Below, piece after piece: positions 4,622 to 31,290 of a stretch of DNA of 64,000 bases (position 1 is its first letter; every line of letters starts with the position of its first letter). A program made the position numbers and the translations under genes. The notes below the pieces were generated by a model. It searched no databases. It was not told the DNA's origin and saw only the letters and a list, made by a program, of their open reading frames with translations. Source of the stretch: Escherichia coli (GTDB lineage: Bacteria; Pseudomonadota; Gammaproteobacteria; Enterobacterales; Enterobacteriaceae). The stretch lies in NCBI RefSeq assembly GCF_016903815.1, contig NZ_CP069973.1; one strand, 5' to 3'.

Positions 4622-7600
4622 TTACACCTTTTCCACATTCACAAGGAAGGACTTAAACTCTGGCGTCTGCGTGTTCGCATCACCAACGAATGGCGTTAAC
4701 GTATTGGCAATAAAGCCTTTTTTCGCAACACCTTCATAGCCCCAGTGAATCGGAATACCGATGGTATCGATATCTTTGCCGTTCGCTTTCAGCGTGCGAA
4801 TACGTTTGGTCACCACCGCTTTGGCTTTTATATAGCCACGGTTGGAGGAGACTTTCACTGTATCGCCCTGGGCAATGCCAAGTTTATTCGCCAGCGACTC
4901 ACCGATTTCCACAAACTGCTCTGGTTGCAAAATCGCGTTCAACAGCGCGTGTTTGGTCCAGTAGTGGAAGTGCTCGGTCAGACGATAGGTGGTTCCGACA
5001 TACGGGAACTTATCGGCTTTACCCAATGCTTCGGCGTCGTCTTTAAAGATACGTGCAGCCGGGTTCGAGATAACGTTTGGATGCAGCGGGTTAGTTCCCA
5101 GCGGCGTTTCAAACGGCTCGTAGTGTTCCGGGAACGGACCTTCCGCCATCTTATCGAGGGCAAACAGACGCCCCATGCCTTCCTGCTGCATGATAAACGG
5201 CCCAACGCCACTGCCCGGAGGCGCTGCGCTGTAGTCCGGAATATCCCAGCCGGTCCACTTAGTGCCGTCCCATTTCAGCAACTGACGCTTCGGATCCCAC
5301 GGGTTACCCTGCGGATCTGCGGAGGCGCGGTTATACAGAATGCGGCGGTTAAGCGGCCATGCCCATGCCCAGCCCAGCGTGTTACCGAGGCCAGACGGAT
5401 CGGCGTTATCACGACGCGCCATCTGGTTGCCCTCTGGCGTCCAGCTACCGGCGAAAATCCAGCAGCCACAGGAGGTGGTACCGTCATCGCGCAGTTGGGC
5501 GAACGAGCTAAGTTGTTGGCCTTTCTTGACGATAACCGCACCGGTTGCCGGATCGGTAATATCGGCCAGCGCCTTACCGTTGCTCTCCATCGCCACTTCT
5601 TCCGACTTCGGCTCATGCGGGATGGCGTAGTTCCAGGTCATGTTCAGCACCTGGTCCGGGTTCGCGCCACCCTGTTCGGCATACATCTTGCGCAAGCGCA
5701 GGAAGATACCGGAGAGGATCTCGCCGTCAGTCAGCGCAATCCCAGGGGCGTCCGCACCTTTCCAGTGCCACTGCAACCAGCGACCTGAGTTAACGATTGA
5801 ACCGTTCTCTTCCGCGAAGCAGGTCGATGGCAGACGGAACACTTCGGTCTGGATCTTCGACGAGTCAACTTCGTTCAGCTCACCGTGGTTCTGCCAGAAG
5901 TTAGAGGTTTCAGTGTTCAGCGGGTCGATGGTGACGAGGAACTTCAGTTTCGACAGACAACCGATCACTTTGTTTTTGTTCGGGAATGAGGCAACAGGGT
6001 TAAAACCCTGGCAGATATAGCCATTGACCTTGCCTTCTTTCATCATCTCGAAGTATTGCAGGACGTCGTAGCCTTTATCCCACTTCGGCAACCAGTCAAA
6101 GCCCCAGCTATTTTCCGCCGTCGCTTTATCACCAAAGAAGGCCTTCATCATAGAGACGAAGAATTTCGGGTAGTTGCCCCAGTAGTTTACCTGGCCTTCC
6201 AGCAGCGGTTTTGGCGTGTTGGCGGTAAGGTAGGTTTGCAGATCGGTCTGCTTCTCGCTTGGCAGCGTCATGTAACCCGGCAGGCTCTGCGACAGCAGCC
6301 CCAGGTCCGTCAGCCCCTGAATATTGGAGTGACCGCGCAGGGCGTTAACGCCGCCGCCGGCCATCCCCATATTGCCGAGCAGCAGCTGGATCATCGCCAT
6401 CGTACGAATGTTTTGCGCACCAACGGAGTGTTGCGTCCAGCCGAGGGCATACAGGAACGAGGCAGTTTTATCGTGTGCACTGGTTTCGGCGATGTATTCG
6501 CAGACTTTCAGGAACGCGTCTTTTGGCGTACCACAGATGTTTTCAACCACATCTGGCGTGTAGCGGGAAACGTGCTGTTTCAGCAAGTTCCACACGCAGC
6601 GCGGATGTTGCAGCGTGGTATCGCGTTTGGCGAAGCCGTTTTCGTCCAGTTCGTAAGTCCAGGAGGATTTATCGTACTTGCGTTTTTCCGCGTCGTAGCC
6701 GGTGAACAGGCCATCTTCAAAGCCGTAATCCTCACGCACGATAAGGCTAGCGTTGGTATAGGCTTCGGTATATTCGCGGTTGAATTTTTCATTGTTCAGC
6801 AGGTACAGCAATACGCCTGACAGGAAAGCAATGTCAGTACCGGAACGAATAGGGGCATAGTAGTCAGCCACCGCCGCCGTACGCGTAAAGCGAGGATCGA
6901 TCACAATCAGCTTCGCGCCGTTGTGAATTTTGGCTTCCATCGCCCAGCGGAACCCGACCGGGTGAGCTTCAGCGGCATTACCGCCCATCACCACGACGAG
7001 GTTGGCGTTCTTGATGTCGACCCAGTGGTTGGTCATCGCACCGCGACCAAATGTTGGAGCAAGACTTGCTACCGTTGGTCCGTGTCAGACACGCGCCTGG
7101 TTGTCGACCGCGAGCATCCCCAGCGCGCGGGAGAATTTTTGCGTTAAATAGCCGGTTTCGTTACTCGACGCGGAAGCACAAAGCATCCCGGTGGAGAGCC
7201 AGCGGTTAACAGTCACGCCTTCGGCGTTTTGCGCAATGTAGTTAGCATCGCGGTCTTCTTTCATCAGTTTGGCGATGCGATCAAACGCCTCTTCCCAACT
7301 GATTTGCTGCCATTTATCAGAACCTGGCGCACGGTATTCCGGAAACTTCAGACGGCTTTCGGAGTGGATGAAATCCACCAGGCCAGCGCCTTTCGGACAA
7401 AGTGCACCGCGGTTGACCGGGTGATCCGGATCGCCTTCGATATGGAAGATAGATGCTTTGGCGTTTTTTGCTCCGTCACCGAGGCTGTACATCAACAGCC
7501 CACAGCCTACGGAACAATAGGTGCAGGTATTACGGGTTTCGCGGGTGCGCAGCAGTTTATACTGCCGGGTTTCCGCGAGTGCTACGCTGGGTGCAAAACC

Positions 7601-26120: not shown

Positions 26121-26220
26121 CCGGAGTGTAGGCCTGATAAGACGCTATCAGCGTCGCATCAGGCATCCTGCTCAAATGCCGGATGCGGCGTAAACGCCTT
26201 ATCCTGCCTACAAATGCGGA
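26121..26220. repeat. REP cluster between yiiM and cpxA
   Basis: GCCTGATAAGACGC...GCGTCGCATCAGGC and GCCGGATGCGGCGTAAACGCCTTATCC palindromic units. Confidence 0.75.
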
Positions 26221-26222
26221 GT

Positions 26223-27596
26223 TTAACTCCGCTTATACAGCGGCAACCAAATCACCAGCCGTAAACCGCCCAGCGGGCTGTCTTCCGCTTTAACCCAGCC
26301 ACGATGCTGCTGAATGGCGGTTTCAACAATCGCCAGCCCCAAACCTGTACCGCCAGATTCACGATCGCGTGCTTCATCGGTACGATAGAACGGACGGAAA
26401 ATCTGTTCGCGATCTTCCGGGCTAACGCCAGGACCATCGTCGTCCACCGTAATGGTGATACCGTCTTTATCTACCGCAAAGCCCACTTCAATCTTCGTAT
26501 GGGAATAACGCAGGGCATTACGAACAATGTTTTCCAGCGCACTCTCCAGGGCGTTCGGGTTGCCGTACAGCGGCCACGGCCCAGGCGGGAAGTTAACTGT
26601 CAACGACTTGCCCATCTGTTCTGCTTCGAACGCCGCGTTATCCAGCACTTCGCCCCACAACTGGTTAGCTTTCAATGTCTCGCTTACCAGCGCGTTTTTC
26701 TGCTGATTACGTGACATCACCAACAGATCGTTAATCATGCTGTCCAGACGTTGCGCTTCGGTTTCAATACGCTCCAGTTCCTTGCTTTCACCGCTACGAC
26801 GGCGCAGTAACGCCGTACCCAGTTGCAGACGCGTCAGCGGGGTGCGCAGTTCGTGAGAGATATCAGAAAGTAGACGCTGCTGAGAGGTCATCATGCGCTC
26901 CAGCGCGGTGACCATCTGGTTAAAACTGGCACCGGCGGCAAGGAATTCCTGTGGCCCCGCTTCCAGTTCCGGGTGCTGGCGTAAGTTTCCCTGGGCAACT
27001 TCATCGGCAGCGTTTTTCAGCTTACGCGCCGGTTTTGCCAGACTCCAGGCCAACCACAACAGCAGCGGCGTACTGACCAACATGGTGACAATCAGCAGTA
27101 ATAGCGGGCGGTCAAACAGTAAGTTAATGAAATCGGATTGAGAACTGCTGGCCGGACGAATCAGATAAAGTTGGTAATTATCTTCGCCATCACGCACGGA
27201 GAACGGACCGACCAGTTCCACGCGGCCATACTTTTTCTTCTGCGGATGATCGGCGTTATCGGCCTGACCAATAAAGTTACGAATGATCTGCATTTCGCTG
27301 CGTTCAGCGCCGATCACGCGGCCCTCGGTGGTCACCAATAACAAACGCTGTCCTGGCGGTGCCCACTTATCAATCGCCCGGAACAGACGCCGCCACCACA
27401 TTAAATCGTTGGGCGGATCGTTCGCCAGCTCCGCTTCGACATGCTGCTCAATCATCAGACCCTGACGCTGTTCGCTATCCAGAAGCTCGGTCATCTGGCG
27501 TGAATCGAGCTTGGGTAACATCAAAACCAACATCAACACCAGCGCCAGCGTCAGCCAGAAGATGGCGAAGATGCGCGCGGTTAAGCTGCCTATCAT
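26223..27596 (-). CDS. cpxA: envelope-stress sensor histidine kinase CpxA
   Basis: 457-aa ORF; H-box SHELRTPLT; overlaps cpxR stop. Confidence 0.95.
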   Translation of the reverse strand: MIGSLTARIFAIFWLTLALVLMLVLMLPKLDSRQMTELLDSEQRQGLMIEQHVEAELANDPPNDLMWWRRLFRAIDKWAPPGQRLLLVTTEGRVIGAERSEMQIIRNFIGQADNADHPQKKKYGRVELVGPFSVRDGEDNYQLYLIRPASSSQSDFINLLFDRPLLLLIVTMLVSTPLLLWLAWSLAKPARKLKNAADEVAQGNLRQHPELEAGPQEFLAAGASFNQMVTALERMMTSQQRLLSDISHELRTPLTRLQLGTALLRRRSGESKELERIETEAQRLDSMINDLLVMSRNQQKNALVSETLKANQLWGEVLDNAAFEAEQMGKSLTVNFPPGPWPLYGNPNALESALENIVRNALRYSHTKIEVGFAVDKDGITITVDDDGPGVSPEDREQIFRPFYRTDEARDRESGGTGLGLAIVETAIQQHRGWVKAEDSPLGGLRLVIWLPLYKRS

Positions 27597-28291
27597 GAAG
27601 CAGAAACCATCAGATAGCCGCGACCACGCAAGGTTTTAAACCACGGGTGACCATCTTTACGATCCGGCAGTTTACGACGCAGGTTGGAAATGTGCATATC
27701 GATAGCGCGGTCGAAAGGCGTCAGACGTTTGCCCAGCACTTCCTGGCTTAAATGTTCACGGGAAACCACCTGACCCAGATGCTGTGCCAGCAAATAGAGC
27801 AGGGTAAACTCAGTACCGGTTAACTCCAGCGTTTGCCCGTCGAAGCTGGCTTCCTGACGGCCTGGATTCAGCACTAAGGCATCAACTTCCAGTGTCGGTG
27901 AACCGTTGTCGTTGTTTTGCTGTTGCTCGCTCCAGTGCGAACGGCGCAGGATCGCGCGAATACGTGCCACCAGCTCACGATCATTAAACGGTTTCGGGAG
28001 ATAGTCATCTGCGCCCAGCTCAAGGCCGAGAACGCGATCAAGTTCACTGCCGCGCGCCGTCAACATAATGACAGGCGTCTGGTGTGTCTGGCGAAGTGCT
28101 TTTAATGTGTCGATACCATTTTTCTTCGGCATCATTACATCAAGCAAAAGTAAATCAATGCTGTCGTCCAGAAGATCAAGCGCCTGTTCCCCATCGTGGG
28201 CAACAATCACATTGAAGCCTTCCATCTCGAGCAGCTCCTTTAATAGGGAAGTCAGCTCTCGGTCATCATCAACTAACAGGATTTTATTCAT
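27593..28291 (-). CDS. cpxR: response regulator CpxR (OmpR family)
   Basis: 232-aa ORF MNKILLVDDD... Confidence 0.95.
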   Translation of the reverse strand: MNKILLVDDDRELTSLLKELLEMEGFNVIVAHDGEQALDLLDDSIDLLLLDVMMPKKNGIDTLKALRQTHQTPVIMLTARGSELDRVLGLELGADDYLPKPFNDRELVARIRAILRRSHWSEQQQNNDNGSPTLEVDALVLNPGRQEASFDGQTLELTGTEFTLLYLLAQHLGQVVSREHLSQEVLGKRLTPFDRAIDMHISNLRRKLPDRKDGHPWFKTLRGRGYLMVSAS

Positions 28292-28347
28292 TGTTTAAAT
28301 ACCTCCGAGGCAGAAATTACGTCATCAGACGTCGCTAATCCATGACT

Positions 28348-28362
28348 TTACGTTGTTTTACA
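28348..28362 (-). promoter_or_regulatory. CpxR box GTAAA-N5-GTAAA in the cpxR/cpxP spacer
   Basis: Plus strand TTTACgttgtTTTAC is the reverse complement of GTAAAacaacGTAAA; a further GTAAA lies near 28391. Confidence 0.65.
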
Positions 28363-28440
28363 CCCCCTGACGCATGTTTGCAGCCTGAATCGTAAACTCT
28401 CTATCGTTGAATCGCGACAGAAAGATTTTGGGAGCAAATG

Positions 28441-28941
28441 ATGCGCATAGTTACCGCTGCCGTCATGGCCTCAACGCTGGCAGTCAGTTCATTAAGCCAC
28501 GCTGCTGAAGTCGGTTCAGGCGATAACTGGCATCCGGGTGAAGAACTTACGCAGCGCAGTACGCAGAGCCATATGTTCGACGGCATAAGTTTAACCGAAC
28601 ATCAGCGTCAGCAGATGCGAGATCTTATGCAACAGGCCCGGCACGAACAGCCTCCTGTTAATGTTAGCGAACTGGAGACAATGCATCGCCTTGTCACCGC
28701 AGATAATTTTGATGAAAACGCTGTGCGCGCACAGGCAGAAAAAATGGCGAATGAGCAAATTGCTCGTCAGGTTGAGATGGCAAAAGTCCGCAACCAAATG
28801 TATCGCCTGTTAACGCCGGAGCAGCAAGCGGTTTTAAACGAGAAACATCAACAACGAATGGAGCAGTTGCGCGACGTGACGCAATGGCAAAAAAGTTCAT
28901 CGTTGAAGCTATTGAGTAGTAGCAACTCACGTTCCCAGTAG
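28441..28941 (+). CDS. cpxP: periplasmic Cpx pathway inhibitor/chaperone CpxP
   Basis: 166 aa from [21 protein letters not shown]; two LTxxQ motifs. Confidence 0.9.
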
Positions 28942-28949
28942 TAAACCCT

Positions 28950-29008
28950 GTTTTCCTTGCCATAGACACCATCCCTGTCTTCCCCCACATGATGTGGGGG
29001 TTTTTTTT
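28950..29008 (+). ncRNA. cpxQ: candidate CpxQ sRNA from the cpxP 3' UTR
   Basis: 3' UTR ends in a strong terminator (CCCCCACAT-GAT-GTGGGGG + T8); call rests on knowledge of CpxQ, exact 5' end not determinable. Confidence 0.4.
28982..29008 (+). terminator. intrinsic terminator of cpxP
   Basis: 9-bp G/C-rich perfect stem plus T8, seen directly. Confidence 0.85.
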
Positions 29009-29089
29009 ATCCTCAATTTGCCTGCTGCTTAATGCATTGCAGATGATTTGCTTCCGTTATACTAGCGTCAGTTGATAGCGGGAGTATTT

Positions 29090-29992
29090 ATGAATCAATC
29101 TTATGGACGGCTGGTCAGTCGGGCGGCGATTGCTGCAACGGCGATGGCTTCACTGCTATTGCTGATTAAAATTTTTGCATGGTGGTATACCGGGTCGGTG
29201 AGTATTCTCGCCGCGCTGGTGGATTCGCTGGTGGATATCGGCGCGTCGTTGACGAATTTATTGGTGGTGCGATATTCCCTGCAACCTGCCGACGATAATC
29301 ACTCGTTTGGTCACGGTAAAGCTGAGTCCCTCGCGGCGCTGGCGCAAAGTATGTTTATCTCCGGTTCGGCACTATTCCTCTTTTTGACGGGTATTCAACA
29401 TCTGGTATCTCCAACACCGATGACAGATCCAGGCGTCGGGGTTATCGTGACAATTGTGGCGCTAATTTGTACGATTATCCTTGTCTCGTTTCAGCGGTGG
29501 GTGGTGCGCCGGACGCAAAGCCAGGCGGTGCGGGCTGATATGCTACATTACCAGTCTGATGTTATGATGAACGGCGCAATTCTGCTGGCGCTGGGGTTGT
29601 CCTGGTACGGCTGGCATCGCGCCGATGCTCTGTTTGCATTGGGAATCGGCATCTATATTTTATATAGCGCGTTACGCATGGGATATGAGGCGGTACAGTC
29701 ATTACTGGATCGCGCATTGCCTGATGAAGAACGGCAAGAAATTATTGATATCGTGACTTCCTGGCCGGGTGTTAGCGGCGCTCACGATCTTCGCACGCGG
29801 CAGTCAGGGCCGACCCGCTTTATTCAGATTCATTTGGAAATGGAAGACTCTCTGCCTTTGGTTCAGGCACATATGGTGGCGGATCAGGTAGAGCAGGCTA
29901 TTTTACGGCGTTTTCCGGGATCGGATGTGATTATCCATCAGGACCCCTGTTCCGTCGTACCCAGGGAGGGTAAACGGTCTATGCTTTCATAA
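29090..29992 (+). CDS. fieF: cation diffusion facilitator Fe(II)/Zn(II) efflux protein
   Basis: 300 aa from [20 protein letters not shown]. Confidence 0.9.
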
Positions 29993-31204: not shown

Positions 31205-31290
31205 CGCTTATCAGGCCTACATGAATTCTGCAATTTATTGAATTTGCAAACTTTTGTAGGCCGGATAAGGCGTTCGCGCCGCATCCGGCA
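31205..31290. repeat. REP elements between pfkA and sbp
   Basis: GCTTATCAGGCCTACA and TGTAGGCCGGATAAGGCGTTCGCGCCGCATCCGGCA units. Confidence 0.7.

Follow-up and report, generated by a model that had tools for sequence, protein, structure and literature searches.

The cpxP promoter is the most strongly Cpx-induced promoter and is widely used as a Cpx reporter, while CpxQ serves as a model for sRNAs derived from a 3' UTR. Upon Cpx activation, cpxP mRNA increases 19-60 fold, and under nlpE overexpression in a cpxR mutant it is down to 0.03. In Salmonella EMSAs, the cpxP promoter has been the positive control for binding by CpxR. A list of 41 known CpxR sites contains two for cpxR/cpxP, namely GTAAAACAACGTAAA and GCAAACATGCGTCAG (PMC9600279 Table S1). 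A DNase I footprint from Yersinia pseudotuberculosis shows CpxR-P protection of the orthologous stretch gtcagggcatgtaaagctga, and scrambling of its GTAAA-N5-GTAAA leads to less binding (PMC3158067). Promoters of the OmpR/PhoB family that are activated in the absence of a -35 element, for example those with pho boxes, provide a related architecture, in which direct-repeat half-sites are phased by 10 bp, the proximal site lies over the -35 position and only a -10 element is recognisable.

Downstream of the gene, CpxQ has been described as an Hfq-dependent RNase E product of cpxP mRNA, ~58-60 nt long and ending in a rho-independent terminator (PMC9438474, PMC6755755, PMC4817254). It pairs with nhaB and cfa through its 5' end, which acts as the seed (PMC6755755), and it has been remarked that conservation within cpxP is highest in the 3' UTR (PMC9438474). 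Two further systems touch the same place. According to its source paper, hrs1 of Erwinia amylovora (130070-130143, plus strand) is flanked by cpxP and fieF and shares their orientation, and the attB of phage Wphi has been given the MG1655 coordinate 4104392 (PMC3448106).

The DNA analysed here (the window, 64 kb) is an E. coli chromosome segment with the gene order cpxA-cpxR / cpxP-fieF-pfkA. Positions 28200-29100 are 100% identical to one RefSeq E. coli chromosome, and 5421 of the 5426 complete E. coli genomes carry this stretch at 99% identity or more, all annotated as cpxR / cpxP / fieF. The gene names cpxR and cpxP, which a first-pass annotation had assigned from the letters alone, agree with the RefSeq annotation of the identical DNA, which also names fieF. 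The genes and their shared spacer are as follows.

26223-27596, minus strand: cpxA (ORF list and RefSeq annotation of identical DNA)
27593-28291, minus strand: cpxR CDS, response regulator (ORF list and RefSeq annotation of identical DNA)
28292-28440, no strand assigned: divergent cpxR/cpxP control region, 149 bp (sequence and ORF list)
28430-28434, plus strand: cpxP Shine-Dalgarno GGGAG, 6 nt 5' of the annotated ATG (sequence; conserved as GGGAG or GGAG)
28441-28941, plus strand: cpxP CDS, 166 codons (ORF list, annotation and MG1655 alignment)

The annotated start of cpxP is the second of two adjacent ATGs, and its stop codon TAG is followed by an in-frame TAA. Compared with MG1655, the window shows 3 differences in 851 aligned bases (28704, 28872 and 28992). 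None of them falls in the 149-bp spacer, so that the whole K-12 cpxPp control region, including both published 15-mers, is shared without any difference. The change at 28704 exchanges the GAA codon (Glu) of MG1655 for GAT (Asp) in cpxP, the change at 28872 is synonymous, and that at 28992 lies in CpxQ. The residue encoded at 28704 belongs to a motif TA(D/E)NFDEN and is Glu in E. albertii and in several other genera.

Every element of the locus is identical or nearly identical to a characterised K-12 reference; the cpxP promoter and CpxQ found here are already known, and they hold no new biology. We put the probability that the whole module is the canonical Cpx envelope-stress output of E. coli at about 95%, and no evidence contradicting this overall picture was found. 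For genome annotation, this amounts to the confirmation of a textbook regulatory module. Sequence identities, motif positions, phasing, conservation, the terminator fold and its covariation were computed here, while CpxR-P binding, Cpx induction, the dependence on RNase E and Hfq, and the CpxQ targets are taken from the literature.

CpxR boxes and the cpxP promoter

For comparison, cpxP loci of other Enterobacterales were retrieved from a genome collection by scanning for a 16-nt pattern (15 specified bases), 12 nt of which lie inside CpxQ. About 20 Enterobacterales were among the 120 matches listed; the rest were mostly chance matches, and those in Serratia oryzae, Aeromonas and Vibrio were discarded as such. 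The spacers of 14 species from Escherichia, Citrobacter, Enterobacter, Klebsiella, Pseudescherichia, Pluralibacter, Siccibacter, Pantoea and Yersinia were aligned, and Dickeya was left out of this promoter alignment because too little upstream sequence was available. Between genera, the control region is 63-99% identical versus 66-96% for the cpxP CDS, and it was rated the more conserved of the two. Its elements are listed below.

28347-28361, minus strand: CpxR box 1, perfect GTAAA-N5-GTAAA, GTAAAACAACGTAAA (exact match, published site and conservation)
28367-28381, minus strand: CpxR box 2, imperfect, GCAAACATGCGTCAG = GCAAA-N5-GTCAG (published site, conservation and phasing)
28392-28396, plus strand: lone GTAAA, in the orientation opposite to boxes 1 and 2 (sequence)
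28393-28398, plus strand: inferred cpxP -10 hexamer TAAACT, conserved as TAnACT (conservation pattern)

The consensus GTAAANNNNNGTAAA has a single exact copy in the 64-kb window, which is box 1; it reads TTTACGTTGTTTTAC on the plus strand. The first-pass annotation had placed a perfect box at 28348-28362 of the spacer and had proposed an exact alignment of the motif. The alignment finds the motif in the spacer as claimed, at a position one base lower and on the minus strand, which had been left unstated. When set against the published sites, box 1 equals cpxR/cpxP1 and box 2 equals cpxR/cpxP2 letter for letter (PMC9600279 Table S1); the latter had been missed.

The two boxes, which span 4105726-4105760 in MG1655 numbering, form on the plus strand the array TTTAC-GTTGT-TTTAC-ACCCC-CTGAC-GCATG-TTTGC, in which four pentamers keep an exact 10-bp phase. 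Judging from the spacing, such an arrangement would fit two CpxR dimers bound to the same face of the helix. The box centres lie 87 and 67 bp 5' of the cpxP ATG, and box 2 overlaps the expected -35 position of cpxP. Both pentamers of box 1 (TTTAC/TTTAC) are invariant in the 14 species, while the five bases between them vary (GTTGT, GTACT, TTAGT, GTAGT and TTAGC); in the same species, the box 2 pentamers CTGAC and TTTGC are conserved around a variable spacer. The Yersinia artesiana spacer (L026) contains an extra 21-bp unit, TTTAC-ATGCC-CTGAC-TCCAGT, and hence six phased CpxR-type pentamers versus four in the other 13 species. Two further strongly conserved blocks, CCTCCGAGGCAGAAATTACGTCATC and AATCCATGAC (28308-28345), are found in the interval from box 1 to the start codon of cpxR. 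Their minus strand might contain the Shine-Dalgarno sequence of cpxR and the cpxRA promoter, with TAATTT as a possible -10 and TGGATT as a possible -35.

A further GTAAA, also pointed out in the first-pass annotation, is indeed present on the plus strand at 28392-28396. This pentamer is uninformative by itself because the window holds 182 copies of it. Its fourth base varies between A, G and C, and most other genera have GTAGA or GTACA. The 14-species alignment, in which the letters TAnACT are conserved, gives no support to it as a conserved CpxR pentamer. We infer instead that TAnACT is the cpxP -10 element, with the transcription start site (TSS) at about 28403-28407, or 4105782-4105786 in MG1655, which is compatible with a native TSS no more than 44 bp from the ATG (PMC4817254). 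A literature search for the TSS or footprint limits of E. coli cpxP returned nothing specific. Scanning 28100-29200 with a sigma-70 consensus gave zero promoters, and a -35 hexamer at the proper distance from TAnACT is absent, with box 2 in its place. This null result is what would be expected of an activator-dependent promoter lacking a -35 element and is read in that sense, not as a sign that no promoter exists. The layout is the same as that of the OmpR/PhoB-family promoters mentioned above, including the 10-bp-phased half-sites, although the sites at cpxP also serve the divergent cpxRA; by analogy with that family, a similar mode of activation seems probable.

Two alternative explanations concern these elements. 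Box 1 might be a chance match without a regulatory role: 0.12 copies of GTAAANNNNNGTAAA are expected per window, 12 of 100 window shuffles contain at least one exact copy, and the one-mismatch boxes (6 sites against 3.3 expected) show no significant excess. These figures, however, describe mere presence. Since box 1 lies within the 149-bp cpxR-cpxP spacer, a chance occurrence at such a position is much less probable (about 0.12 x 149/64000), and since one-mismatch boxes elsewhere occur at chance frequency, the perfect site alone stands out. Box 1 is moreover identical to a published site, no change in its pentamers is seen from Escherichia through Yersinia whereas the bases between them differ, and the orthologous Yersinia site has been validated experimentally (PMC3158067), so that coincidence can be practically dismissed. 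A stronger case can be made for the third GTAAA being a functional CpxR-P half-site, belonging to a third operator over the -10/+1 region, instead of or besides a -10 element. PMC9753035, citing Yamamoto & Ishihama 2006, gives PcpxP three CpxR-P sites, the third reaching +5 of the TSS; with a TSS near 28403-28407, such a site would cover 28392-28396. Besides, the G at 28392 is invariant across species though a -10 hexamer has no need of it. On the other hand, most other genera have GTAGA or GTACA in place of the pentamer, it is oriented opposite to boxes 1 and 2, and it has no partner at the N5 distance (TATCG downstream, CAGCC upstream); the letters under conservation, T-A-n-A-C-T, match a -10 element, and the 41-site list gives just two cpxR/cpxP sites (PMC9600279 Table S1). 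A third operator is therefore a real possibility, but it is the less favoured one, and we prefer to regard TAnACT as the -10 element of a promoter served by boxes 1 and 2.

CpxQ, its terminator and the Cpx circuit

The 3' UTR of cpxP carries the following elements.

28950-28951, plus strand: processing site CCCUG↓UUUUCC, 9 nt past the stop (annotated cpxQ 5' end, mapped by alignment)
28951-29008, plus strand: CpxQ sRNA, 58 nt (alignment to annotated MG1655 cpxQ)
28951-28965, plus strand: CpxQ 5' seed UUUUCCUUGCCAUAG, predicted to be single-stranded (MFE fold and conservation)
28964-28980, plus strand: predicted small internal hairpin AGACA/UGUCU (MFE fold)
28982-29008, plus strand: intrinsic terminator with 8-bp stem, 3-nt loop and U8 (terminator scan, fold and covariation)

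In MG1655, cpxQ is the annotated ncRNA b4716 (4106330-4106387, 58 nt), which maps to 28951-29008. Position, strand and length are shared with the window, and 57 of the 58 bases are identical; the sole mismatch is the terminator-loop base 28992 (A here, C in K-12). The RNA begins 9 nt past the cpxP stop and ends at the last U of the U8 tract. The earlier suggestions of a strong terminator at the end of the cpxP 3' UTR and of CpxQ as its product both hold, and the comparison of ends proposed with them places 29008 exactly at the mapped 3' end of the annotated K-12 cpxQ.

The terminator stem pairs 28982-28989 with 28993-29000, six of its eight pairs are G-C, and it is followed by T8 at 29001-29008. 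The U8 tail of CpxQ is the expected Hfq-binding 3' end. The predicted fold of CpxQ has an energy of -17.4 kcal/mol (z = -2.7), and the first 13 nt of the seed are unpaired in it. Across genera, three pairs of the terminator stem show changes on both sides, which are compensatory, and 86% of the stem cells remain paired versus 39-60% in slid controls. All five pairs of the internal hairpin are invariant, and covariation is therefore neutral with regard to it. The consensus for RNase E is RN↓WUU; the annotated G↓U cleavage position is not exactly on this consensus, which a shift by one base would match.

CpxQ is 88-100% identical across genera versus 66-96% for the cpxP CDS and 56-98% for the CpxP protein, a conservation that is somewhat inflated because 12 nt of CpxQ were part of the retrieval pattern. 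The 5' seed and the body are kept from Escherichia through to Yersinia, Dickeya and Pantoea, the one departure being a 1-nt deletion in Pantoea stewartii. The seed does not vary among 11 distinct sequences, which represent 10 genera, and 12 of its nucleotides belong to the retrieval pattern. The stretch CCTGTTTTCCTTGCCATAGACACCATCCCTGTCTT is invariant across genera save for the P. stewartii deletion, and as 16 of its bases are the search pattern itself, only the other 19 count as independent evidence. Outside the pattern, the rest of the CpxQ body, TAGACACCATCCCTGTCTT, is likewise invariant save for this deletion. The higher conservation of CpxQ than of the cpxP CDS agrees with the published remark on the 3' UTR (PMC9438474).

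Taken together with the literature, these elements suggest the following circuit. Envelope stress would cause CpxA to phosphorylate CpxR, and CpxR-P would bind the four phased direct-repeat pentamers of boxes 1 and 2 on the minus strand of the cpxR/cpxP spacer. Since box 2 occupies the -35 position, CpxR-P would recruit sigma-70 RNA polymerase to a promoter with a -10 only. Strong activation of cpxP would then start from the TAAACT (28393-28398) promoter, presumably through a class-II-like substitution for the -35 element, and the divergent cpxRA operon, which is autoregulated, would use the same boxes. The cpxP mRNA would yield the periplasmic CpxP protein, and its transcription would end at the terminator at 28982-29008. 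An RNase E cut at 28950/28951 would release the 58-nt Hfq-dependent CpxQ, whose single-stranded 5' seed would repress mRNAs such as nhaB, skp and cfa.

A phage attachment core overlapping the 3' end of cpxQ

The 3' part of cpxQ coincides with a second kind of site.

28965-29011, no strand assigned: unoccupied attB core of Wphi-type P2-like phages (47/47 identity to Wphi and to many Peduovirus genomes)

Of its 47 nt, 44 are the 3' end of cpxQ and 3 lie beyond it. The phages carry their own copy of it, and the site is empty in the window. After conversion from the older K-12 numbering by way of a cpxP coordinate, the Wphi attB coordinate 4104392 probably lies inside cpxQ. In E. coli RUT3575, a P2-like prophage (integrase, Cox) starts directly past the core, with cpxP and CpxQ intact. 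The core was seen in locus L002 (3766-3812), with a prophage from about 3813, and in locus L003 (3001-3045). In a circular 32-kb P2-like element, the core adjoins the element's own integrase. Where some E. coli have a P2-like prophage (integrase, Cox, ogr) directly past the core, the junction restores CpxQ. The flanks occur in about 840 additional copies among the 5426 complete E. coli genomes, which suggests that attB is occupied in roughly 15% of them.

The attachment core lends some support to another explanation, in which the cpxP 3' UTR is only a terminator, conserved because of termination or phage attachment and not as an sRNA. The terminator is clearly there, and the Wphi-type core does coincide with the 3' 44 nt of cpxQ. 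Conservation is greatest, however, in the unpaired 5' part, for which a terminator has no need, while the stem varies with compensation. The core leaves the first 14 nt of CpxQ, within the 5' seed, uncovered, and the CpxQ body persists in genera whose terminator is unlike the 47-nt core. As CpxQ is, moreover, an annotated and experimentally studied sRNA, we consider the terminator-only explanation very improbable and retain CpxQ as the product of this 3' UTR.

Among complete E. coli genomes, A is the commoner form of loop base 28992 (4487 genomes, against 1088 with C); the phage attP copies have A, and K-12 has C. Both alleles occur together in at least 149 genomes, and the two forms presumably sit at the two prophage junctions. 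In occupied genomes, the terminator half downstream of the crossover point would be phage-derived, and the A/C polymorphism might trace past lysogeny, with A as the phage form. A search of the literature for papers linking cpxP/CpxQ with the P2-like attB found none with both. That the Wphi attB, whose mapping preceded the discovery of CpxQ, overlaps an sRNA gene may have gone unremarked. The joint reading, in which the terminator half of CpxQ is phage-derived in ~15% of genomes, the loop polymorphism records past lysogeny and the overlap is unremarked, is offered tentatively, and we think it rather unlikely to hold. The polymorphism at 28992 could be used for mapping the phage crossover point. 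That the 3' end of cpxQ is also a frequently occupied prophage site is relevant whenever cpxQ alleles or the cpxP-fieF spacer are compared across strains.

The Hrs1 model and Rfam coverage

At gathering score, Rfam 15 gave zero RNA families in 28292-29008, and Rfam 15 has no CpxQ family. A permissive search returned RF02628, Hrs1 (Erwinia amylovora Hfq-regulated sRNA 1), at 28936-29008 on the minus strand, antisense to cpxP, which at 44.5 bits misses its gathering score (56.4). Matches to NsiR1, RyhB and OmrA-B in the same search were weak, terminator-driven and far below threshold, and were taken as chance. In three Pantoea loci, the Hrs1 model scores above threshold (61-75 bits), on the strand antisense to cpxP/CpxQ. 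Besides that in the window, its matches are at L101 7621-7694 (minus strand), L067 3279-3351 (plus strand) and L032 360-430 (plus strand), and they are antisense in every locus.

Hrs1 is the Erwiniaceae orthologue of CpxQ. The two share the cpxP/fieF spacer, but the strand of the Hrs1 model is opposite. The model consensus opens with AAAAAAA followed by a stem. Given that the source paper orients hrs1 in the sense of cpxP and fieF, while the model matches antisense, the RF02628 model appears to be reverse-complemented, an inversion that may have gone unremarked until now. Because there is no CpxQ family and the sole related model is wrong-stranded, Rfam-based annotation overlooks CpxQ in E. 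coli.

The other above-threshold Rfam matches in the window are expected features of this E. coli region (all Rfam, above gathering score).

7032-7090, minus strand: SECIS_3 selenocysteine insertion element
26131-26208, minus strand: naRNA4, REP-derived, between yiiM and cpxA
31213-31254, minus strand: ES036
44906-44963, minus strand: ClpQY (hslVU) promoter element
49575-49627, plus strand: L31 ribosomal protein leader
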